Positions 4,000 to 63,472 are shown, counted from the first letter of the stretch. The stretch: 64,000 nt of DNA from Acidobacteriota bacterium (GCA_029569255.1 JAKQUO010000019.1:23175-87174); one strand, 5' to 3'. The notes: generated by a model not told the origin, from the letters alone. Translations and numbers: made by a program.

Positions 4000-5454
4000 A
4001 TGGCGAGGCACCCGAACGACTCGCGGGGCCGGGGGCGAAAGCTCCCGGCCCCGTGGATCCTGGCGGCGGCCGTCCTGGCCTTCTGCTCGCTCTGCGCCTG
4101 CGCCCGGACCGCCCGGGACGCCCAGGGCGCCCCGGACGTCGCCGCCGCGATGGACGCCTATCTCACGGCCGCCCACAAGCTCCAGTGGTTCAGCGGGAAC
4201 GTCTTCGTCGCCCGCGGCGGCCGGGTCATCCTGAACAAGGGCTACGGCCTGGCCGATTACGAGCTCGGCGTCCCGTTCACGCCCCGGACCAAGTTCCGCC
4301 TGGGCTCGGTCACCAAGCAGTTCACGGCCATGGCCGTCCTCCAGCTCGAAGAGAAAGGCCTGCTCAAGGTCGCGGACACGGTCCGGTCGGTCTTCCCCGA
4401 TTACCCGGAGGGCGACCGGATCACCATCCACCATCTCCTGACGCACACGGCGGGCATCCCCAACTTCACCTCGTTCCCGGATTACCCGAAGGCGATGCTC
4501 TTCCCGACCTCGGTCCAGGAGGCGGTCGACCGGTTCAAGAACAGGCCGCTGGACTTCCCGCCGGGCGAGAAGTTCCGCTACAGCAATTCGGGCTACGTCC
4601 TGCTGGGGGCCATCATCGAGAAGGTCTCGGGGGAGACCTACGAGGCCTTTCTCCGGGAGAACATCTTCCGGCCGCTGGGCATGGAGGATTCGGGGTACGA
4701 CCACCGCGAGGACATCCTGAAGGACAGGGCGTCCGGCTACGAGTTCGTCAAGGACCAGAAGGTGAATGCCTCTTACGTCGACATGTCCGTCCCCTACGCG
4801 GCGGGGGCCCTCTATTCGACCGTCCTCGACCTCTACAAGTGGGACCGGGCCCTGTACACGGACAAGCTCGTGCCCCAGGCCGCGCTGACGAGGATGTTCA
4901 CGCCGTTCGATCCGCACGCCGGTCCGGCCCCCGCGACCGGGATGTCCAAGGAGACCTACGCCTACGGCTGGGTGGTCAAGTCGTCCGCCGGCCACAAGGA
5001 GATCAGCCACGGCGGCGGGGTCAACGGCTTCGCCACGCATATCGCCCGTTTCCCCGACGACGACGCCTGCGTCATCGTCCTGAACAACTTCCTGACCGCC
5101 CACATCCAGAGGGTCAGCGATTCCCTGGCCGCCCTTCTGTTCGGCCAGGCCGTCGAGATGCCGGAGGACAGAAAGCCCGTCAAGCTCCCGGCCGCGGTCC
5201 TGGATTCCTATCCGGGCCGCTATCAAGTGGAGGGCGAGCCGATGGTCTTCACCGTCGTGAGGGACGGCGACAACCTCCTGCTTCAGGCCCCCGGGCAGCC
5301 GGAGCTGGTCCTGCGGCCCCGGTCGGAGGCGGCGTTCTTCTCGAGACGGGCGAACATGGACGTGATCTTCGAGAAGGACGCCTCGGGCCGGGTCTCGCAT
5401 TTCGTCCTCGTCCGGGGCATCCTCAAGACGAAAGCCGTCCGAGTGGAGGAATGA
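4000..5454 (+). CDS. Serine hydrolase, beta-lactamase/D-aminopeptidase-like, probable lipoprotein
   Basis: SxxK active-site motif (SVTKQF) and a YxN-like region. The N-terminal signal has Cys residues resembling a lipobox. Confidence 0.8.
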   Translation: MARHPNDSRGRGRKLPAPWILAAAVLAFCSLCACARTARDAQGAPDVAAAMDAYLTAAHKLQWFSGNVFVARGGRVILNKGYGLADYELGVPFTPRTKFRLGSVTKQFTAMAVLQLEEKGLLKVADTVRSVFPDYPEGDRITIHHLLTHTAGIPNFTSFPDYPKAMLFPTSVQEAVDRFKNRPLDFPPGEKFRYSNSGYVLLGAIIEKVSGETYEAFLRENIFRPLGMEDSGYDHREDILKDRASGYEFVKDQKVNASYVDMSVPYAAGALYSTVLDLYKWDRALYTDKLVPQAALTRMFTPFDPHAGPAPATGMSKETYAYGWVVKSSAGHKEISHGGGVNGFATHIARFPDDDACVIVLNNFLTAHIQRVSDSLAALLFGQAVEMPEDRKPVKLPAAVLDSYPGRYQVEGEPMVFTVVRDGDNLLLQAPGQPELVLRPRSEAAFFSRRANMDVIFEKDASGRVSHFVLVRGILKTKAVRVEE

Positions 5455-28533: not shown

Positions 28534-28610
28534 TGGCGCGCCTGGAGGGACTCGAACCCCCGACCCGCTGCTTAGAAGGCAGCTGCTCTATCCACCTGAG
28601 CTACAGGCGC
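28534..28610 (-). tRNA. tRNA-Arg (anticodon TCT), CCA encoded
   Basis: Reverse complement is GCGCCTGTAGCTCAGGTGGATAGAGCAGCTGCCTTCTAAGCAGCGGGTCGGGGGTTCGAGTCCCTCCAGGCGCGCCA. It forms a cloverleaf with anticodon loop CTTCTAA. Confidence 0.85.
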
Positions 28611-28631
28611 GTCGAGGCCGCGGAGAGGGAA

Positions 28632-28706
28632 TCGGGGAGAGCGGATTTGAACCGCCGACCTCCTGCTCCCAAGGCAGGCGCGCTAGCCGGGCTGCGCCAC
28701 TCCCCG
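28632..28706 (-). tRNA. tRNA-Pro (anticodon TGG)
   Basis: Reverse complement is CGGGGAGTGGCGCAGCCCGGCTAGCGCGCCTGCCTTGGGAGCAGGAGGTCGGCGGTTCAAATCCGCTCTCCCCGA. It has a 7-bp acceptor stem and anticodon loop CTTGGGA. Confidence 0.8.
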
Positions 28707-28738
28707 TTCCGTTCGGCCGTAGAATTCTAGCACAAGAA

Positions 28739-28822
28739 GGGGTCAGACCTGAACTTCTTCACTTTTTCGAGACGGCAACTCATAAGAAGCGCGAAAAACT
28801 GAACAAGTTCACGTCAGACCCC
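28739..28822. repeat. Imperfect 22-bp inverted repeat (GGGGTCAGACCTGAACTTCTTC ... GAACAAGTTCACGTCAGACCCC) with 40-nt spacer in low-GC DNA next to tRNA-Pro
   Basis: Read from the sequence. Its head, GGGGTCAGACC, resembles the GGGGTCAAACC terminal repeats at 41866, 43212, 58060 and 58189. Confidence 0.4.
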
Positions 28823-28877
28823 TTACGTCGGACCCCCTCTCGGCCAGCCGTCCGTTTTACGAAGACCTGGTCCCCTC

Positions 28878-39144: not shown

Positions 39145-39656
39145 CGCCGCAGCGGACGTCCAAGGACGAGTACTATCTGGGCATCGCCCGGGAGGTGTCG
39201 ACCCGGAGCACGTGCTTCCGCCGGGCCATCGGGGCCATCATCGTCCGGGACGACCAGATCATCTCGACGGGCTACGTCGGCGCGCCGCGCAAGACCAAGG
39301 ACAGCCTCGAGCACGGCTACTGCCTCCGGGACAGGCTGGGCGTCCCCCACGGGCAGAGATACGAGCTCTGCCGGAGCGTCCACGCCGAGCAGAACGCCAT
39401 CATCAACGCCGCCCGGGCCGGGGTCAGCCTGCTCGGGGGCGACATGTACATCTACGGCGGCGCGCCGGGGGCCGCGGAGCCGATCAGCGCCGTCCCCTGC
39501 TTCATCTGCAAGAAGATGATCGTCAACTGCGGGCTCGGCCGGGTCGTCTGCTCGAAGGCCGGCGGCGGGACGCTGGTCTTCCGGCTCGAGGACTGGATCC
39601 GCGACTGGCAGGAGCGGGACATCCTCGACGACCAGCGCCAGTACGGGAAGGACTGA
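39141..39656 (+). CDS. dCMP deaminase (CMP/dCMP deaminase zinc-binding family)
   Basis: HAEQNAI plus PCxxC zinc motifs. Confidence 0.8.
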   Translation: MTPQRTSKDEYYLGIAREVSTRSTCFRRAIGAIIVRDDQIISTGYVGAPRKTKDSLEHGYCLRDRLGVPHGQRYELCRSVHAEQNAIINAARAGVSLLGGDMYIYGGAPGAAEPISAVPCFICKKMIVNCGLGRVVCSKAGGGTLVFRLEDWIRDWQERDILDDQRQYGKD

Positions 39657-41881
39657 TGGGGAAGCGGGCCGCGGGGCGGGGATGCCCCCCCCGGAGCGAG
39701 GCGAGGGGAGGGCTTCTGCGCCTGGTCATCATCATCGCCGTCCTCGCGGCCGTCGTCGCGCTCGTGACCGGAAAGGGCCAGGAGAGGACGGCCGGGGGAG
39801 CCCCGGCGAAGGGGCTGCTCGACCTGTTGGGGATCGCGCCCTCGGCGGAGTCGGCCGATTACGTCCGGGCGAAGACCCCGTTCCAGCTCCACACCCTGCT
39901 CACGGAACAGCGCCACCCGAAGACGTGGCGGCTCGGCGAGACGGTCCGCGGGGACACGCTGGCCGGGCTGAGGATGCTCTCCTCGGTCGACGACGACATC
40001 CGGGCCAGGATGGACGGGCTCGCGGCGGCGCCGGAAACGCTCGAGCGGGCGGCTCGGGCGGTCGAGGAGGCCATCGTCGGCGGCCGTAAGGTCTACGTCT
40101 ACGGCTGCGGCGCGACCGGGCGGCTGGCCAAGCAGATGGAGAGCGCTTTCTGGCGCCCGTTCTGGCGCAAGGTCAAGGCGGACCCGACGATCTGGAGACG
40201 CCTCCAGGGACGCATCCCGGCCGGGATCGAGGAGGCCCTCGTCGGCGAGATGACCGGCGGCGACCGGGCCCTGATCAGCTCCCTCGAGGGCTTCGAGGAC
40301 CTCCAGCTCATCGGCCGGCTCCAGCTCCGGGACCGGGGCGTCGCGCGGGGCGACGTCGTCATCTGCGTCACCGAGGGCGGCGAGACGTCGTCCGTCATCG
40401 GGACCGTCCTGGCGGCCCTGGACCAGTGGCGGGCGGAGCCCGGGGCGGGAGGCGCGGAGGAGAGCCGGAAGCGGCTGTATTTCGTCTACAACAACCCGGA
40501 CGACCGGCTCCTGCCCTTCGAGCGGAGCCGGAGCGTCCTGGCCGAGCCGGGCATCGCCAAGATCAACTTGACGACGGGGCCGCAGGCGATCGCCGGCTCG
40601 ACGCGCATGCAGGCGACGACGATCGAGACCTACGTCCTGGCCGCGGTCGTCGAGACGGCGGTCGAGCGGGCCCTGGCGAGGACGCTGGGGAGGCGCGAGC
40701 TGGCCCGGCTGGGGTTCGCGGGGGGAGCGGCGGCGGAGGGGGTCGCGGACAGGCTCCGGGAGTTCGGGGCCGTCCTCGACGGCGCCCGGGCGGCCCTGCC
40801 GGCGCTGGCGGCGCTGACCGACATGGAGGCGGCGGCCTACGCGGCCGGCCGGTTCTCCACGTACTACGCGGAGAAGGGGCTGATCACCGTCTTCATCGAC
40901 AGCACCGAGCGCAGCCCGACCTTCCGGCTCTACCCCCTCGACACGGTCGGCGAACCGGCGCGCAAGTGCTGGATCCAGGTCTGGACGAGGGCGGGGACGG
41001 CCGCGGCGGCGTGGCGGGCCTTCCTGGGCCGGCCGTTCCGGGGGCTGTCCGAGGCGTTGTACCGCCGGCCCTTCGAGACCGAGGTCGAGGACCCCTACCT
41101 GAGGCGGGCCGCCCTCGAGAGCCTGAAGAGGGCCGGCGACGACCAGGCCGGGCGCTACGATTTCTCGCTGTCGAAAGCCAACCGGGAGAGGCGGGGGCCG
41201 AAGAAGGGGGACCTGTGCGTCCTCGTGGCCCTGAGCCCGGAGGAGACGGAGTTCGAGCTCCCGTCGTCGTCGTTCACCGAGGTCCTGCGGCTGGCCCGCG
41301 AGGGCGGCGCGGACGCGGCCGTGCTGACGGTCACGAACCGGCCGGCCAAGGACTTCCCCAAGCTCGAAGAGAGCGTCCGCCGGCGCTGGACGGGGAAGGG
41401 CGGCCGGCTCGTCGTCGTCCCGGTCCACGTCCGGACGGCCGGCGACGCGTTCGGCGTCCGCCAGCAGACGGCGGCCAAGATGCTCCTCAACGCCCACTCG
41501 ACGGCGGTCATGGCCAAGCTGGGCAAGGTCGTCGGCAACACCATGACCAACGTCAGCCCGAGCAACCTCAAGCTCATCGGGAGGGCGACCTACCTCATCC
41601 AGTCCCACGTCAACGACGTCCTGGCCCGCCCCGAGTGGGTGTCGGCCCACGGAGCGCGCGAGCCGATCACGTACGGCGAGGCCAACGCGGTCCTGTACGA
41701 CTCGATCGCCTTCCTCGCGGGCCGGCCGGCCGAGGCGGGGCAGACGGCCGAGGTCGCCCTGTCGATCGTCCGCATCCTCGAGTCGCTGGGCCGGAAGCGC
41801 GGCGTCGGCCCGGCCGAGGCACTGGAGATCGTCAGGACGGTCAGCCTGAGCGACTACCTCAAGACGGGGTCAAACCTTTAA
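39656..41881 (+). CDS. Membrane-anchored SIS-domain protein (MurQ/GCKR-family-like)
   Basis: 741 aa with an N-terminal TM helix and a SIS-like VYVYGCGATGRLAKQ ... GSTRMQATTIETYVL. Its last five codons and TAA stop (GSNL*) are supplied by the terminal repeat of the adjacent mobile element. Confidence 0.55.
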   Translation: MGKRAAGRGCPPRSEARGGLLRLVIIIAVLAAVVALVTGKGQERTAGGAPAKGLLDLLGIAPSAESADYVRAKTPFQLHTLLTEQRHPKTWRLGETVRGDTLAGLRMLSSVDDDIRARMDGLAAAPETLERAARAVEEAIVGGRKVYVYGCGATGRLAKQMESAFWRPFWRKVKADPTIWRRLQGRIPAGIEEALVGEMTGGDRALISSLEGFEDLQLIGRLQLRDRGVARGDVVICVTEGGETSSVIGTVLAALDQWRAEPGAGGAEESRKRLYFVYNNPDDRLLPFERSRSVLAEPGIAKINLTTGPQAIAGSTRMQATTIETYVLAAVVETAVERALARTLGRRELARLGFAGGAAAEGVADRLREFGAVLDGARAALPALAALTDMEAAAYAAGRFSTYYAEKGLITVFIDSTERSPTFRLYPLDTVGEPARKCWIQVWTRAGTAAAAWRAFLGRPFRGLSEALYRRPFETEVEDPYLRRAALESLKRAGDDQAGRYDFSLSKANRERRGPKKGDLCVLVALSPEETEFELPSSSFTEVLRLAREGGADAAVLTVTNRPAKDFPKLEESVRRRWTGKGGRLVVVPVHVRTAGDAFGVRQQTAAKMLLNAHSTAVMAKLGKVVGNTMTNVSPSNLKLIGRATYLIQSHVNDVLARPEWVSAHGAREPITYGEANAVLYDSIAFLAGRPAEAGQTAEVALSIVRILESLGRKRGVGPAEALEIVRTVSLSDYLKTGSNL

Positions 41882-43212
41882 TTTTTTAATTTTTCCCCGT
41901 CCGTGAGAATCGGGACCCGTTTCGGCGTCTTTATCAAGGGCGGATATCCGTCCCTTGAAAAGCGAGCCTCCCATGTCAAGGCAACCGAGAATCGCGTATC
42001 CAGGCGCCTTCTACCATGTCTATTCCCGGGGAAACCAGAAACAACGGATCTTTTTCTCTGACGAGGATCGAGGCTTCTTCCTGAAGATCCTCAGGGACGC
42101 CCATGAGCGATTCTCGGCCATGTGGCATCTTCTGTGCCTCATGGAAAACCATTATCACCTGGGCTTGGAAACGCCGAAGGCCAATCTCTCCCAGATCATG
42201 CATTTCGTCAACTCGGCCTATTCCATCTACCTGAACACGAAACATGAAAGGTGCGGCCATATTTTCCAGGGGCGATTCAAGGCCATCCTCGTTCAAACCG
42301 GCCTCTACGCCCGGACCCTGACGAAGTACATCCACGCGAATCCCGTCCGGAAGGGCATCGTCGCGAAGCCGGAGGATTTCGAGTGGTCGAGTTGCCGGGT
42401 CTATTTTGGGCTTCGGCAGGCGCCCGCCTGGCTCAGCACGAAAACGATCATGGCTTGTTTCGAAGGCAACGCATCAGCCCTGCGAAAGGAGCACGAGGAT
42501 TATCTCGCTTCCCCGGAAGATCTGTCGTTCAGAGAGCAGCTCAGGTCGGCCGCCAGCGTCGGCATCCTGGGCGACGACGATTTCGTAGACAAGCTCCGCC
42601 GGTCTTTCTTGAAGGAGGCTCTCGAAGCGAACGACGATGAGCTCGGAGGACTCAGGAGGCTCCGGATCAGGCCGGAGCTCGGAAGGATCGCGGACGAGAT
42701 CCACAGAGAGTTGGGGGACAAGAACAAGCTGGCCAGGAAGTGCGCGATCTACTTCGCCCGCCATTACGCCGGCTACAAGCTCAAGGAGATCGGGGAATTC
42801 TACGGGATCGGCCCGGCCGCGGTTTCTATCGCGTTCCACGCCATAGAAAGCACCGTGGCCGCCAACGAAGTCTTGAAAGGCGCTTTCGAAAGAATCAAAG
42901 AACGGCTAACCTGGATTATTCACGAATCGACACGGCTCCCAGATGCGAGGCCCGAGGGGTGAAGCCGTACTCTGCGGCACCGCGAATCCCGAGAACGAAC
43001 GAGATGGGGCCGGTTCGGTTCGCCCGAAGGGTCAAAGCGCCCGGATAAGAATAAGCCCGGCTAATGACCTGAATCGTCGTCGAATCTAGACGTCCCTCAG
43101 ACGCGAAGTCCCGGGGGCGAGAACGAACGGGGCGTTTTATGAATAAACCTGGAAGAGCGGGAATCCGGCATCAAGGAAAAGGAGAAAATTAAACTTTTAA
43201 AGGTTTGACCCC
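41866..43212. mobile_element. 1.35-kb TIR-bounded element carrying a Y1 transposase::DnaA_C gene
   Basis: Left end GGGGTCAAACCTTTAATTTTTTAATTTTTCC. Right end (reverse complement) GGGGTCAAACCTTTAAAAGTTTAATTTTCTCC. The low-GC interior fills the whole space between two convergent stop codons. Confidence 0.65.
41955..42962 (+). CDS. IS200/RAYT-like Y1 (HUH) transposase fused to a DnaA C-terminal-like HTH domain
   Basis: HUH motif MENHYHL, catalytic Tyr region TKYIHANPVRKG, and a C-terminal helix-turn-helix resembling the DnaA domain IV (ARKCAIYFARHYAGYKLKEIGEFYGIGPAAVS). Confidence 0.75.
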   Translation: MKSEPPMSRQPRIAYPGAFYHVYSRGNQKQRIFFSDEDRGFFLKILRDAHERFSAMWHLLCLMENHYHLGLETPKANLSQIMHFVNSAYSIYLNTKHERCGHIFQGRFKAILVQTGLYARTLTKYIHANPVRKGIVAKPEDFEWSSCRVYFGLRQAPAWLSTKTIMACFEGNASALRKEHEDYLASPEDLSFREQLRSAASVGILGDDDFVDKLRRSFLKEALEANDDELGGLRRLRIRPELGRIADEIHRELGDKNKLARKCAIYFARHYAGYKLKEIGEFYGIGPAAVSIAFHAIESTVAANEVLKGAFERIKERLTWIIHESTRLPDARPEG

Positions 43213-43215
43213 TTC

Positions 43216-44319
43216 TTAGGCTTCGAGGCTGTAACAGGGGGCGGCGGCCGGGCGGGGCTTGCGCTTCGGCTTGGCCTTGACCTGGGGGTAGACGAACAGC
43301 TCGCCGGCGTAGTTCCGCAGCACGACCCGCTCGTCGGTGATCGACTGGATGTACTTCGGCAGGACGGGGATCTTGCCGCCGCCGCCGGGCGCGTCGATGC
43401 AGTAGTACGGGACGGCCAGGCCGGACGTCCAGCCGCGCAGGGCCTCCATGATCTCGAGGCCCTTCTCGACCGTCGTCCGCAGGTGCTCGGTCCCGCTCAC
43501 GTAGTCGGCCTGGTAGATGTAGTACGGCCGGACCCGCGCCGCCAGGAGCCTCTGCATGAGCCGGCGCATGACCAGCGGGTCGTCGTTGACGCCCTTGAGC
43601 AGCACCGTCTGGTTGCCGAGCGGGATGCCGGCGTCGGCCAGCAGGCCCAGGGCCCGCGTCGCCTCGGGCGTCAGCTCGTCGGGGTGGTTGAAGTGGACGT
43701 TGACGTAGAGCGGGTGGTACTTCTTGAGCATGGCCGCGAGCTTTTCCGTGACCCGCTGCGGCAGGACGCAGGGCACCCGCGTGCCGACGCGGATGATCTC
43801 GACGTGCGGGACGGCCCGGACGCCCTTGATGACGGCCTCGAGCCGGCGGTCGCTGAGCATGAGCGGGTCGCCGCCGGAGACGATGACGTCCCGGATCTCG
43901 CCGTGGGCCCGGATGTAGGCCAGCCCGTCCTCGATGTAGCGGGGGTGGATCTTGGAGGGATCGCCGACCTTCCTCTTCCGGGTGCAGAAGCGGCAGTAGG
44001 AGGCGCAGCTGTGCGAGACGAGGAAGAGGCACCGGTCGGGGTAGCGGTGGACGATGCTCGGCACCGGGGAGTCGTGGTCTTCCTCGAGCGGGTCGGCGAC
44101 GCCGCTGCCGGTCCTGAGCTCGGCCGGGTCCGGGACCATCTGGCGCCACATGGCGTCCCCGCGCTCCTTGATCAGCCCGGCGTAGTAAGGCGTGATCTGG
44201 ATCTTGAACGTCTTGGCGATCCGCCGGACCTCCTCGACGTCGAGCCCGAACTTCCGGGCGATCTCCTCGGGTTTCCGGAGAGCGCCTCGGAGCGAGCGTT
44301 GCCAGTCGTCCATCTCCAA
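43216..44319 (-). CDS. kamA: Lysine 2,3-aminomutase family radical SAM enzyme (KamA/EpmB-like)
   Basis: CASYCRFCTRK radical SAM motif and KamA-family conserved blocks (IRDVIVSGGDPL, HPLYVNVHFNHP). 367 aa. Confidence 0.8.
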   Translation of the reverse strand: MEMDDWQRSLRGALRKPEEIARKFGLDVEEVRRIAKTFKIQITPYYAGLIKERGDAMWRQMVPDPAELRTGSGVADPLEEDHDSPVPSIVHRYPDRCLFLVSHSCASYCRFCTRKRKVGDPSKIHPRYIEDGLAYIRAHGEIRDVIVSGGDPLMLSDRRLEAVIKGVRAVPHVEIIRVGTRVPCVLPQRVTEKLAAMLKKYHPLYVNVHFNHPDELTPEATRALGLLADAGIPLGNQTVLLKGVNDDPLVMRRLMQRLLAARVRPYYIYQADYVSGTEHLRTTVEKGLEIMEALRGWTSGLAVPYYCIDAPGGGGKIPVLPKYIQSITDERVVLRNYAGELFVYPQVKAKPKRKPRPAAAPCYSLEA

Positions 44320-44323
44320 GCTC

Positions 44324-44797
44324 CTAACGGTGATACTTCGCGTAGATGACGCGGTCGTCGCCGGCCCGGTAGAAATCGGGGACGCGGGCGACTTCCTTGT
44401 ATCCGAGATCGATGTAGAACCGCCGCGTGGCGTGGTATTTCGGCTGGGACGAGGTCTCGATGAAGACGACCCGGCCGTCGCGCCGCCGGACCTCGGCCTC
44501 GAGCCAGCGGACGAGCTCCTTGCCCCGGCCCTTCCCCTGCTCCGCCGGCGCCACGGCCATCCAGTACAGGTCGTAGGCGTCCTCGGCCAGCGGCGTCGGG
44601 CCCCAGGTCATGTAGCCGGCCACTCCCCTCGCGTCGTTCTCGACGACGACGACGCGGTAGTCCGTCTGCTCCGGCCGGCCGAGGTAGATGTCCACGAGCT
44701 CCTCGGCCACGGCCACCTCGGCCTCGGTGAAGAACCCCGTCGCCCGGACGAGCCCGAGGACGGCGTCCTTATCGCGCGCTTCCATCGGCCGGATCAT
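44324..44797 (-). CDS. GNAT family N-acetyltransferase
   Basis: 157 aa with an acetyl-CoA binding motif (QGKGRGKELVRWLE). A 4-nt gap separates it from kamA. Confidence 0.75.
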   Translation of the reverse strand: MIRPMEARDKDAVLGLVRATGFFTEAEVAVAEELVDIYLGRPEQTDYRVVVVENDARGVAGYMTWGPTPLAEDAYDLYWMAVAPAEQGKGRGKELVRWLEAEVRRRDGRVVFIETSSQPKYHATRRFYIDLGYKEVARVPDFYRAGDDRVIYAKYHR

Positions 44798-45803
44798 TGA
44801 CCGTCCTTCTCTTCAGGGCGTTGTCGATCATGGCGCCCCAGAACGCGGCGTATTCGATCCCCGCGGCCGCGAGGGCCCGGGCGTAGCCGGCGTTGGTGCT
44901 GATGTCGGGGTTCGGGTTGACCTCGAGGATGAACGGCCGGCCCCTGGCGTCCATGCGGAAGTCGATCCGGGCGTAGTCGCGGCAGCCCATGGTCCGGAAG
45001 GCCGCCTCGGCCAGGCCCTGCAGCCCGGCCCGCAGCCCGTCGTCGATCGGGGCCGGGCAGACGGGCGGCGTCTTCTGGTAGAGCGGGTGGTCCTCGAACC
45101 ATTTCGCGTCGTAGCCGAGGATGCGCGGCGTGTCCTCGGGCATGGCCGAGAAGTCGATCTCGGAGACCGGCAGGGCCCGGGCCCGGCCGTTCTCCATGAC
45201 CGAGACGTTGAACTCCCGGCCGTCGATGAAGGCCTCGACCAGGACCGGCTGCCGGTAGCTGTCGAGGCAGCGGCGGACCTGGCGGCGCAGCGACTCCTCG
45301 TCGCGGACGACGGACTCGGGGTAGACCCCCAGGCTGGCGTCCTCGGCGTTGGGCTTGACGATGAGCGGGAAGCGCAGCTCGAGCGGCTCCTCGCCGGTCG
45401 TCATGAGCTGGGCCGGGGCCGTCGGCAGCCCGGCCGCCTTGAGCACCGCCTTGGCCCTGAACTTGTCCTGGCAGAGGGCCAGCGTCTTGGCCCCGTTGCC
45501 CGTGAACGAGAGGCCCAGGAGCTCGAACATGCCGGCCACGTTCGACTCCCACTGGGGCCGCCCGTAGTAGCCCTCGCAGAGGTTGACCAGGGCGTCGGGG
45601 TTGAGCTCCCGGACCCGGCTCATGAAGTTGAGCAGGCTCCGCTGGAGCGGGACGAGGGTCGCCCCGAGCCCCAGGCTGAGGACGGCCTCCTGGGCCTGCC
45701 GGGCCATCTCGGCCACGGACTCCTCGGACAAACGCTCGCCCGCCGCCGTCGGTCTCGGTTCGTAGGCGTTGAAGACGATGGCGATCGCGGGGGCAGGGGT
45801 CAT
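44769..45803 (-). CDS. ATP-grasp ligase, D-alanine-D-alanine ligase family
   Basis: 344 aa. Its C-terminal half aligns with the Ddl catalytic region (YDAKWF...RDYARIDFRMD...ILEVNPNPD). Confidence 0.75.
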   Translation of the reverse strand: MTPAPAIAIVFNAYEPRPTAAGERLSEESVAEMARQAQEAVLSLGLGATLVPLQRSLLNFMSRVRELNPDALVNLCEGYYGRPQWESNVAGMFELLGLSFTGNGAKTLALCQDKFRAKAVLKAAGLPTAPAQLMTTGEEPLELRFPLIVKPNAEDASLGVYPESVVRDEESLRRQVRRCLDSYRQPVLVEAFIDGREFNVSVMENGRARALPVSEIDFSAMPEDTPRILGYDAKWFEDHPLYQKTPPVCPAPIDDGLRAGLQGLAEAAFRTMGCRDYARIDFRMDARGRPFILEVNPNPDISTNAGYARALAAAGIEYAAFWGAMIDNALKRRTVNDPADGSAR

Positions 45804-46909
45804 GCGCGATCCGCGTGGACCGCCGGCCGCTCGCTCGCCGCGGGCCGGACGCGCGTCGGACGGAGGCCGCAGCGCTTGCTCGCCTCCTCCACGACCCTGT
45901 GGATCAGGTCCGAATAGGAATACCCGGCGGTCCGGGCCGCCTTGGGCAGGCAGGAGTTGTCCTCGGGGTTGGGCAGGACGCCCGGCAGCGGGTTGACCTC
46001 GAGGATGTTCGGCTCTCCCTTCTCGTCGAGCCGGACGTCGAGCCGGGCCCAGTCCCGGACGCGCAGGACGCGGCAGGTCCGGAGGACGACGGTCTCGATC
46101 TTGGCCGCGAGGACCGCGGGGATGGGCGCCGGGCACTTGAAGATGTCGAGGGGCTTCTCCGGCGTGTCCCACAGCCACTTGGCCTCGTAGGAGTAGACGG
46201 GCGCCGCGCCGGCCGGCAGCTGGGCGTGGTCGATCTCGACGATGGGCAGGACCTCGTAGGCCGGGTCGTTGCCCAGGACGCCGACCGTGAACTCGCGCCC
46301 GGTGAGGAAGCGCTCGACGATCGCGGGCTGGCGGTAGGCCCCGGTGACCTCCTCGACGCGCTCGTAGAGCTCGCCGAGGCTGTGGACGAGGGAGTTGTTC
46401 CTGATGCCCTTGCTCGAGCCCTCGAAGAGGGGCTTGACGATGGCCGGCAGGCGGACGCCGGCCGGGATGGCCGTCGGCGACTCGACGACCCAGAAGGCCG
46501 GGTTGGGGACCCGGTGGTAGGACAGGATCTCCTTGGCCCGCGACTTGTCGAGGCAGATGCCGAGCGTCAGCGGATCGGACCCCGTGTAGGGGATGTCCAG
46601 CATCTCGCAGATCGAGGGGATGTGCGACTCGCGGTTGGGGCCGACGACGCGCTCGGCCATGTTGAAGACGAGGTGCGGCCGCTGGCGTTTCAGCCGGCCG
46701 AAGGCTTTGTCGTCGGACTCGATGAAGACGACCTGGTGCCTCTCCCGGAGAACCTGCCCGACCGCCGCGATCGTCTCGTCCGAGTCGCACTCGGCGAGCA
46801 TGTCCGGCGGCAATGGAGGCTCGTCCTCCTCGCTCTTCGGCGCTTCGGGGCGGGGCGGGAGGGTCGCCTCCATCCCCGCTTTCGAGCTATAGACCAACGC
46901 CACTTTCAT
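45800..46909 (-). CDS. ATP-grasp ligase, D-alanine-D-alanine ligase family (second, paralogous)
   Basis: 369 aa with the same architecture (YSYEAKWLW ... RDWARLDVRLD ... ILEVNPLPG). Overlaps the downstream ATP-grasp gene by 4 nt. Confidence 0.75.
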   Translation of the reverse strand: MKVALVYSSKAGMEATLPPRPEAPKSEEDEPPLPPDMLAECDSDETIAAVGQVLRERHQVVFIESDDKAFGRLKRQRPHLVFNMAERVVGPNRESHIPSICEMLDIPYTGSDPLTLGICLDKSRAKEILSYHRVPNPAFWVVESPTAIPAGVRLPAIVKPLFEGSSKGIRNNSLVHSLGELYERVEEVTGAYRQPAIVERFLTGREFTVGVLGNDPAYEVLPIVEIDHAQLPAGAAPVYSYEAKWLWDTPEKPLDIFKCPAPIPAVLAAKIETVVLRTCRVLRVRDWARLDVRLDEKGEPNILEVNPLPGVLPNPEDNSCLPKAARTAGYSYSDLIHRVVEEASKRCGLRPTRVRPAASERPAVHADRA

Positions 46910-57826: not shown

Positions 57827-58059
57827 GGATAACGGTCGTCGGAGGGCGGGGGGAAAAACCCAAAAAAATGCAAGGCGTCGATCTCCGCCCTCCGGCCGCC
57901 GCCCTTCCCTCTTCGGCGGACGCAACGTTGCGCCGGGGAAGGCCGTTCTATCAAGCGAGTGGACAGGATGAACGTGAAACCTCCTTTTCGGCTTCTTCGA
58001 TAACCTCCTTCCCCCCCAGGGGCCGCCCCGGCCTGGTGACGCGGCCAGGGCGGCCCTCT

Positions 58060-58189
58060 GGGGTCAAACCTTTATTTTTTCAATTTCCGCTTCACCCCTC
58101 GGGCCTCGTATCTGTGGGGCCGCCTCGAGTCATGAATAACTCAGGCTATTCGTTAGGCCGGGAAATTAAAAAATTAAAGGTTTGACCCC
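58060..58189. mobile_element. 130-bp MITE-like miniature element with the same terminal inverted repeats as the 41866-43212 element
   Basis: Left end GGGGTCAAACCTTTATTTTTTCAATTTCC. Right end (reverse complement) GGGGTCAAACCTTTAATTTTTTAATTTCC. It is AT-rich and non-coding. Confidence 0.65.
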
Positions 58190-58210
58190 TTCTTTTCTTT
58201 AGCTTAGAAT
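58182..58210 (+). promoter_or_regulatory. Hybrid promoter: -35 TTGACC inside the MITE terminal repeat, 17-nt spacer, -10 TAGAAT in flanking DNA, immediately upstream of the riboswitch
   Basis: Read from the sequence. Spacing and hexamers are close to consensus. Confidence 0.45.
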
Positions 58211-58211
58211 G

Positions 58212-58360
58212 GACGCGGCTTTGTGAGAAGGGAAGTCCGTTAGACGCGGACACAGCCCCCGCTACTGTATCCGGGGACGAATCCCGAAGGACGCCACGGC
58301 CGCCAAGCCGGAAGGCTCGGGAGGAGGACGATCCGGGAGTCAGGAGACCTTCCAAAAAGC
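58212..58360 (+). ncRNA. Cobalamin (AdoCbl) riboswitch
   Basis: AAGGGAAGUCCG..., CCCGCUACUGUAUCCGGGG and the B12 box AGUCAGGAGACC at 58338-58349. CAGGAGACC is repeated at the RBS of the downstream receptor gene. Confidence 0.75.
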
Positions 58361-58429
58361 CCGGTCGCGCGGTCTTCGGGAGGAAGACGGGGCCGGAAAA
58401 AGCGGCGGGGGCGGCCAGGAGACCCCGCC

Positions 58430-63272: not shown

Positions 63273-63472
63273 CCCGGCTATTCGTTAAGACGCCGGCTAT
63301 TTTCATAAGACAAGAAGAACCAAGACCGGCGTCTTAGCCCTTCGGGCGGGCCGATCCAGCCGCATCTGCATCGTTGCCAAGGCTCGCAGTACTCCGAGTA
63401 CAGCTTCGCCTTTGACGCCTCGCATCTGCGGCCGCCTCGGCTCGCGAATAAGCCAGGCTAAAACTCCTTGGA
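63273..63472. other. ~200-bp low-GC insert between the Pat stop codon and a duplicated copy of the Pat 3-prime end
   Basis: Contains a tandem ~20-bp repeat (CCCGGCTATTCGTTAAGAC / GCCGGCTATTTTCATAAGAC), a 9-bp stem hairpin (AGACGCCGG...CCGGCGTCT) and GCCC-TTCG-GGGC. Confidence 0.4.

Follow-up and report, generated by a model that had tools for sequence, protein, structure and literature searches.

A 64,000-nucleotide stretch of a genome assigned to an Acidobacteriota bacterium (GCA_029569255.1, JAKQUO010000019.1:23175-87174; hereafter the window, with positions counted from its first letter) carries a 1.35-kb element between a SIS-domain gene and a kamA gene, in which a Y1 transposase gene is bounded by inverted repeats. 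The element is very probably a TIRtron with a single-copy TIRYT gene, of the class known both as Group 1 of the repetitive extragenic palindromic (REP)-associated tyrosine transposases (RAYTs) and as TnpA-REP subclass 2.1. Its history is likely to be best explained by residence: the TIRtron is inherited vertically, and the short non-coding inverted pairs that share its repeat are what spreads. The original prediction described a discrete mobile insertion. A recent insertion of this kind is not supported, because in six other lineages orthologous loci carry the same gene and the same kind of repeat at the same junction. The parts of the element are as follows.

41861–41893, plus strand: left terminal inverted repeat unit, AAGAC-GGGGTCAAACCTTTAATTTTTTAATTTT; holds the last 6 codons and the TAA of the SIS-domain gene
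41973–42962, plus strand: TIRYT gene, 329 aa; N-terminal Y1/HUH core and a C-terminal helix-turn-helix (HTH) resembling DnaA domain IV at residues ~250-315
43185–43217, minus strand: right terminal inverted repeat unit, reverse complement AAGAA-GGGGTCAAACCTTTAAAAGTTTAATTTT; overlaps the complement of the kamA stop by 2 bases

Residency at the SIS/kamA junction

The element is flanked by two convergent genes.

39656–41881, plus strand: upstream SIS-domain gene, 741 aa, with a MurQ-like etherase signature; reads into the left repeat
43216–44313, minus strand: downstream KamA-family lysine 2,3-aminomutase, 365 aa; convergent with the SIS gene

A TIRYT gene lies between these neighbors in seven lineages, namely the window and L068, L062, L118, L121, L119, and L127, and its product ranges from 77% identity to the window protein down to 43-45%. 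The L068 and L062 loci are shorter and read SIS-TIRYT-kamA, with identities of 77% for TIRYT, 87% for KamA, and 67-75% for SIS. Their orthologous elements, of 1101-1102 bp, are the only ones of ~1.1 kb among 95 stretches recovered by a metagenome scan. The order SIS-TIRYT-kamA-GNAT-ATP-grasp is found in L118 (56%), L121 (51%), L119 (44%), and L127 (45%); this synteny, with a dCMP deaminase gene ahead of SIS, is what look-ups of the more distant homologs P0023 (56%), P0063 (51%), P0089 (44%), and P0077 (45%) returned. The 1.1-kb unit has stayed at the SIS/kamA junction through the deep divergence of this Aminicenantes-like Acidobacteriota clade.

Each exact protein tested also keeps to one place. 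The window protein occurs in 18 contigs; wherever flanking genes are present, the locus is SIS/kamA, and the remaining contigs are unitigs that extend barely beyond the element. Homolog P0077 occupies the SIS/kamA locus in all 8 places listed, from 24 contigs. P0110 occupies a different junction, also convergent (SpoU-Y1-ABC), in 8 of the 8 places listed, again from 24 contigs, and further family members sit at other junctions (L120, L135). A second full-length copy is absent from the window and from the 95 metagenome stretches. The original prediction had proposed a search for further transposase copies and for uninserted orthologous loci; the former places the exact protein at a single locus, and the latter turned up no empty SIS/kamA junction, as every relative examined has the TIRYT gene.

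The repeats have been retained together with the gene. The outer repeat AAGAA-GGGGTCAAAyCT is kept in L068, L062, L118, and L121, four of the five other SIS/kamA lineages examined, as well as at the SpoU locus. The inner repeat varies along with the protein across lineages (TTTAATTNTTTAATT, CCACTTTTAC, CCACTTATTAAAT, CAACATTCAACA). In L119 and L127, two complete hairpin pairs flank the TIRYT gene instead of single arms, and of the foot only AAGAAGG is retained.

The transposase, its repeat, and the dispersed hairpin pairs

The ATG start of the TIRYT gene is consistent with all homologs in a 39-sequence alignment, whose members are 39-74% identical to the window protein. The 329-aa open reading frame (ORF) matches Pfam Y1_Tnp (4.5e-10) and the NCBIfam model for REP-associated tyrosine transposases (3.4e-18; 65.9 bits, under the cutoff of 80), while the NCBIfam IS200/IS605 model reaches only E=0.13. 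The window protein displays H60-Y-H62, GHIFQGRF, the catalytic Tyr Y119 in YIHANP, and WSS from W138-S139. Invariant or nearly so in the 39 homologs are NHYH (H60, H62), GH.FQGRF, Y119-x-H121-x-N123-P124, and W138-S139; the fourth position of YIHANP is A in the window protein and L, G, or A across homologs. An AlphaFold2 (AF2) model (mean pLDDT 85) has E. coli TnpA-REP bound to a REP hairpin (4er8) as its top structural match in the PDB (E 4e-5, target TM 0.74), with the IS608, ISDra2, and IS200 transposases ranking below it.

The C-terminal tail is matched weakly when the single sequence is used (Bac_DnaA_C, E=0.005; HTH_23, E=0.15, over the C-terminal half; TIGR00362, E=0.013). A profile of the 39 sequences searched against the PDB matches six DnaA chains over profile positions ~250-314, the best being M. 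tuberculosis DnaA domain IV, 3pvp (1.8e-4), and 8btg (2.6e-4), with the other four at 0.015-0.25. DnaA is not among the matches listed by Foldseek for the full-length model, because all top matches fall on the Y1 core. The tail assignment rests on the sequence profile and on the domains reported for the class (Quentin et al., 2018). The predicted fusion of a Y1/HUH domain to an HTH resembling DnaA domain IV, as first proposed for this ORF, is accepted on these sequence matches.

A repeat search places the terminal arms at 41861-41893 and 43185-43217, each of 33 nt and 88% complementary to the other. The inverted repeats of the original prediction are therefore real, but its 27-30 bp were too short: the arms reach 5 bases further out on each side, and the true span of the element is 41861-43217, replacing 41866-43212. 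An information profile over 137 distinct repeat ends defines the unit as 33 nt, [A/C][A/G]GAN-GGGGTCAAACCTTTAATTNTTTAATTTY. Its outer edge is sharp and lies 5 nt outside the GGGG, and information is at background by -6 and past +28. The 16-mer GGGGTCAAACCTTTAA occurs 4 times in the 64-kb window against 0.09 copies expected by chance. The foot GGGGTCAA agrees with GGGGWSAS at 7 of 8 positions, the final one being A and not C or G; the final-position G is present in the relative L120 (GGGTCAGG, with three Gs) and in a second repeat type of the window (GGGGTCAG). The inner repeat is a tandem TTTAATT-N-TTTAATT. The G+C content drops from ~0.70-0.74 in the flanks to 0.53-0.60 within the element.

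At the left junction, the SIS ORF ends AAG ACG GGG TCA AAC CTT TAA, with its stop (41879-41881) inside the repeat; the coordinates agree with the earlier claim that the element fills the gap between convergent stops and that the SIS gene takes its final codons and its stop from it. The TAA that abuts the repeat unit on its outer side (TAA-GAA-GGGG) serves as the SIS stop in four of the five closest orthologous loci, and the window's ORF extends to the TAA inside because its reading frame entering the repeat differs. At the right junction, the kamA stop (43216-43218) shares two bases with the end of the 33-nt unit.

Copies of the repeat, which the original prediction had suggested looking for, do occur elsewhere. 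Besides a second copy in the window, the 95 metagenome stretches are mostly inverted pairs of ~92-94 bp and represent 65 distinct elements after pairing. The core of a pair, from GGGG to CCCC, measures mostly 82-95 bp with a mode of 84 (94 bp once the feet are included), and a few cores reach 100-314 bp. When species-representative genomes were scanned for the exact pattern, only two pairs, of 82-84 bp, were recovered, both in one Acidobacteria metagenome-assembled genome (RA.bin134). Pairs fold as perfect hairpins with 33-34-bp stems (z -10 to -13 against shuffles), whereas the structure of single arms is no better than that of shuffled controls (z +0.5, +1.1), which marks the units as terminal inverted repeats and not REP palindromes.

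The arms are ~95% conserved at most positions, and the loops and flanks far less. At arm position 18, which varies freely, the two arms agree in 52 of 74 pairs against 24.6 expected, a result in keeping with pairs being copied whole or with selection on the stem. As first noted for the 1.35-kb element, there is no target-site duplication (TSD), and none is found at any tested boundary in the 74 related elements either. At the GGGG/CCCC boundary, identical flanks of 2-8 nt occur in 0-1 of 74 elements. At the -5 boundary, 2- and 3-nt matches occur in 10/74 and 5/74 (4.6 and 1.2 expected), and matches of 6-8 nt are absent.

Flank-to-flank comparison of the fetched loci places most pairs at sites that are orthologous among relatives with 75-95% flank identity. 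A filled and an empty version of one site are represented by L040, with a 61-bp element, and L045, which reads GAC TTA TAA CAG, that is, two abutting convergent stops. In the filled L040 site, the plus-strand gene enters the element and closes with G S N L before its stop, the same tail as the window's SIS gene. Pairs are gained or lost, but rarely. Their density in related genomes is uneven, with 5 pairs in a 62-kb contig and 1 in 594-745 kb.

Two composite arrangements were also observed. When L073 (2938-3876) is compared with L095/L115, L073 shows ~940 bp bounded by two different short pairs (71 and 111 bp), and L095 a 61-bp element at the orthologous site. In L022 (5190-5355), an AT-rich pair (5234-5317) is contained within a GC-rich inverted pair with a similar foot (GGGGTCAACCCTCGCGGCGGGGC ... 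GCCCCGCGCCGAGGTTTGACCCC).

The window's own dispersed pair has the following features.

58055–58194, strand not assigned: second, non-coding copy, a 140-bp inverted pair with arms at 58055-58087 and 58162-58194 and a ~70-nt interior
58182–58210, plus strand: candidate hybrid promoter, with TTGACC (-35) from the right repeat, a 17-nt spacer, and TAGAAT (-10) from the flank

Without its feet, this copy spans 58060-58189, and it folds into a single long hairpin (z = -6.4). Orthologous versions are present in L099 (164 bp) and L069 (143 bp), both of which conserve TTGACC-17-TAGAAT, a 10/12 match to a sigma-70-like promoter. A cobalamin riboswitch (58193-58370; Rfam 88.7 bits) lies directly downstream of the copy and its candidate promoter. 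Over 156 repeat ends, -10-like hexamers number 11 at spacer 17, 6 at spacer 12, and 0-3 at most other spacings. The earlier suggestion that the outward TTGACC motifs act as promoters finds some support at the second copy and at these other ends; at the 41861-43217 element, no -10 stands at the correct spacing and no outward promoter is predicted.

Relation to known systems and other features of the window

RAYT-like genes flanked by long inverted repeats were named TIRtrons and their products TIRYTs by Di Nocera, De Gregorio and Rocco (2013; BMC Genomics 14:522, PMC3733652). GGGGWSAS is found in most, not all, of the terminal inverted repeats (TIRs) they describe and is reported as a hallmark of TIRYT flanks across phyla. 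The same study notes that some genomes contain dispersed TIRs, both single and dimeric, and describes an Acidobacteria subgroup with sharp limits. Twenty of 26 TIRYTs fall in TnpA-REP subclass 2.1 (Quentin et al., 2018; BMC Genomics 19:475, PMC6006769). The signatures of this subclass are NH[YF]H, FQ at the W-motif position, Y[IV]HLNP, and SS (Table 1 of that study), its C-terminal domain is Bac_DnaA_C, HTH_23, or HTH_28, and it corresponds to RAYT Group 1 of Bertels; the TIR consensus is unlike a DnaA box (Quentin et al., 2018). For Group 1, Bertels et al. (2017; PMC5581495) found flanking 16-mers to be only modestly abundant and the statistics to be the most IS-like of all true RAYTs. Within the searchable literature, the term TIRYT is confined to Di Nocera et al. 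(2013) and Quentin et al. (2018).

The TIRtron architecture is thus already described, from bioinformatic work of 2013 and 2018, and the host here is an uncultured Aminicenantes-like Acidobacteriota lineage. The element shares with TIRtrons a Y1 gene, long non-palindromic inverted repeats, and dispersed singles and dimers; its foot comes close to GGGGWSAS, at 7 of 8 positions. It resembles their '3'ov' type in that one repeat overlaps the 3' end of the TIRYT gene in the orthologs. Numerous dimers in some relatives and the deep conservation of the locus are features that Di Nocera et al. (2013) do not address.

Assignment to subclass 2.1 (2.1.2) and Group 1 was made by the motifs and tail domain of the window protein: NH[YF]H, FQ, Y[IV]H.NP, the SS tail motif, and a long protein with a C-terminus resembling Bac_DnaA_C/HTH_23. 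The subclass has one or two copies per genome, in line with the single locus here, and the window protein, at 329 aa, exceeds its median of 238 aa. Whereas Quentin et al. (2018) report no REP-like sequences near subclass 2.1 genes, a clear population of hairpin pairs exists here. Similarly, more horizontal transfer is suspected for Group 1 by Bertels et al. (2017), in contrast to the vertical, locus-fixed inheritance in this clade.

In REPIN-RAYT systems (Bertels and Rainey, 2011; RAYT Groups 2 and 3), too, the Y1 gene is single-copy, passes on vertically, and lies between inverted copies of a repeat that is also dispersed as inverted doublets, which form long hairpins and persist at orthologous sites; 4er8 as the best structural match belongs to the same set of likenesses. 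The present unit differs in lacking the GTAG tag and in being non-palindromic and not self-folding, and it was rejected as a REP palindrome on this last point. The protein differs in its extra ~180-aa tail with an HTH, and the repeat in being AT-rich within a 69% G+C genome.

With the IS200/IS605 transposases TnpA (IS608, ISDra2), the system has in common the HUH/Y1 fold, the absence of a TSD, and presumably single-strand chemistry. Those elements are multi-copy, have asymmetric subterminal hairpins and no TIRs, and carry a Tyr motif of the form Y...Q. Membership in IS200/IS605 is rejected by the symmetric TIRs, YIHANP, the E=0.13 match, and the single locus. The original view of an element unlike IS200/IS605 and like a REP/RAYT arrangement holds.

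The window contains further repeats.

42907–43153, plus strand: nested insertion of ~245 bp, absent from the L068 and L062 elements; an unrelated repeat
42906–43036, plus strand; 63333–63461, minus strand; and 58089–58148: copies of 'family B' in the window
L087:8970-9101; L027:6550-6681 and 2040-2171; L113:4817-4940: copies of family B outside the window
28737–28824, strand not assigned: inverted pair of a second repeat type, arms AAGGGGTCAGACCTGAACTTCTTCAC... of 33 nt and 88% complementary, with foot GGGGTCAG

The first ~130 nt of the nested insertion (42906-43036) belong to a separate GC-rich repeat of ~132 nt, termed family B. Three of its copies lie within repeat-bounded elements, the 245-bp insertion among them; family B sequence also makes up part of the interior of the second copy at 58055-58194 and occurs in a 314-bp repeat-bounded element in L027. 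A long-range stem is predicted for family B, with some compensatory changes. A covariance model finds only 8 copies in 746 kb, a small number for judging covariation, and Rfam returns no match for it, even at E up to 5. The pair of the second repeat type adjoins tRNA-Pro and tRNA-Arg genes (28534-28706); its cognate transposase gene is not in the window, and the fetched loci hold no copies of it.

On the minus strand, 43216-46909 encodes kamA, then a GNAT acetyltransferase, then two ATP-grasp genes of the D-Ala-D-Ala-ligase type. The cluster is kept in L118, L121, and L119, and L127 has the GNAT and the first ATP-grasp gene. It resembles a pathway of the acetyl-beta-lysine type to which ligases have been added.

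Proposed mechanism, alternative readings, and significance

Both IS608 TnpA and E. coli TnpA-REP cleave single-stranded DNA through a 5'-phosphotyrosine beside a hairpin that they recognize. By analogy, and on the model of REPIN-RAYT systems, the hairpin pairs would be substrates on which the resident TIRYT acts in trans. A pair would extrude in single-stranded DNA as a hairpin with a ~33-bp stem. The Y1 core would recognize the conserved foot, AAGAA-GGGGTCAAACC, and cut there through a 5'-phosphotyrosine, while the HTH tail would read the lineage-specific inner repeat, in the window the two TTTAATT heptamers. The excised strand would then reinsert in single-stranded DNA without duplication, often at abutting convergent stops. 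Stated in these terms, trans-mobilization has, in our estimate, about an even chance of being correct.

A wider proposal is more tentative and may well not hold. The system may be a long-lived, vertical partnership of the REPIN-RAYT type within Group 1/subclass 2.1, a group that published surveys describe as without REP-like partners and as more IS-like, with bipartite recognition and with pairs co-opted by the host. Bipartite recognition would combine binding of the foot (AAGAA-GGGGTCAAACC) by the Y1 core with binding of tandem heptamers by the HTH, TTTAATT-N-TTTAATT here and CAACATT-CAACA in the L135 lineage. Co-opted pairs could serve as -35 donors, as for the cobalamin-riboswitch operon, or as stop-codon/terminator modules at convergent gene ends.

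Several points weigh against a resident TIRtron that moves its pairs in trans. The searchable literature contains no biochemical study of any TIRYT member, so trans-mobilization and the cleavage site are what we infer from related enzymes. The final position of the motif, A instead of S, departs from the TIRtron GGGGWSAS. Flank bases -5 to -1 are conserved without covariation between the arms and could belong to a preferred target instead of the element itself. Movement must be rare given that pairs are mostly at orthologous sites, and the single empty site, L045, could equally be explained by precise loss. The nested insertion replaces the native last ~12 codons of the window's TIRYT, whose activity is not assured. 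In every orthologous locus, G+C at third codon positions (GC3) is low in the TIRYT gene, 0.59-0.75 against 0.77-0.97 in the SIS and kamA neighbors (0.92-0.97 in four of five loci), which is odd for a gene of long residence. Finally, in L118 (2903-3995), TIRYT is only 56% identical to the window's, as against 77% for L068, with neighbors equally close (KamA 88% and SIS 77% for L118) and with a different inner repeat. This divergence suggests that the unit co-evolved fast or was replaced as a whole at a fixed locus. Taken together, the low GC3 and the L118 divergence possibly reflect rapid co-evolution, an exchange of alleles at the fixed locus, or codon usage kept poor by selection.

The alternative that survives best, though we consider it unlikely, is that the enzyme has been domesticated or is inactive, the pairs being fossils or co-opted regulatory DNA and the DnaA-like tail working in a host function at the fork or origin. 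A role at replication forks has been raised for this domain, which could target them (Quentin et al., 2018; PMC6006769). Such a history would account for pairs that stay mostly at orthologous sites across 5-25% flank divergence, for a gene position kept over deep divergence, and for the 3' insertion in the window's TIRYT gene, as well as for the conservation of the second copy's hybrid promoter in orthologs and the enrichment of -10-like hexamers at spacer 17. It is harder to reconcile with HUH and Tyr motifs that are invariant in 39 homologs, or with arms that covary and are conserved at ~95%, well above the loops and flanks. The presence/absence polymorphism at one site and the uneven pair density (5 in 62 kb, 1 in 594-745 kb) also count against it.

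Less probable still is the recent arrival, between the SIS gene and kamA, of an autonomous IS200/IS605-superfamily insertion sequence that is mobile today. Its appeal comes from a G+C content below that of the flanks, an intergenic space filled exactly with the SIS C-terminus rewritten, family members at different junctions (L120, L135), and a duplication rate for Group 1 that is the highest among true RAYT groups (Bertels et al., 2017; PMC5581495). Logan unitigs could be read in the same sense, as short ones start at 41866-41868, several break at 42971-2, and L006 ends exactly at 43212. These unitigs come from many samples, and their breaks inside the repeats are accounted for by the many short pairs that share this multi-copy repeat. 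Occupation of the junction in seven lineages, down to 43% protein identity, runs counter to a recent arrival, as do the single locus of each exact protein tested (18-24 contigs) and the lack of a second full-length copy in the window or the 95 metagenome stretches. The third alternative, that the pairs are ordinary miniature inverted-repeat transposable elements (MITEs) moved by an unlinked DDE transposase with the Y1 gene inside one by chance, has superficially MITE-like terminal inverted repeats and miniature size in its favor and can be dismissed, because there is no TSD in 74 elements, a conserved foot flanks every family member examined while the inner part varies with the protein, the GGGGWSAS foot has been published as characteristic of TIRYT flanks (PMC3733652), and a DDE transposase was not seen adjoining any copy.

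A resident TIRtron matters chiefly for the enzymes themselves. No branch of the REP-type Y1 enzymes is larger or less understood than the TIRYTs (RAYT Group 1), and this clade offers an unusually clean natural data set for them: a single gene resident at one locus, a 33-nt repeat with sharp boundaries, a conserved foot, and a tandem inner part that varies, and a sizeable population of perfect hairpin pairs with at least one filled/empty site pair. The target of the HTH and the cut site of the enzyme thereby become directly testable with oligonucleotides. Otherwise, the result is one of annotation: the gene should be labeled TIRYT/RAYT-like, neither an IS200/IS605 transposase nor a recent insertion.

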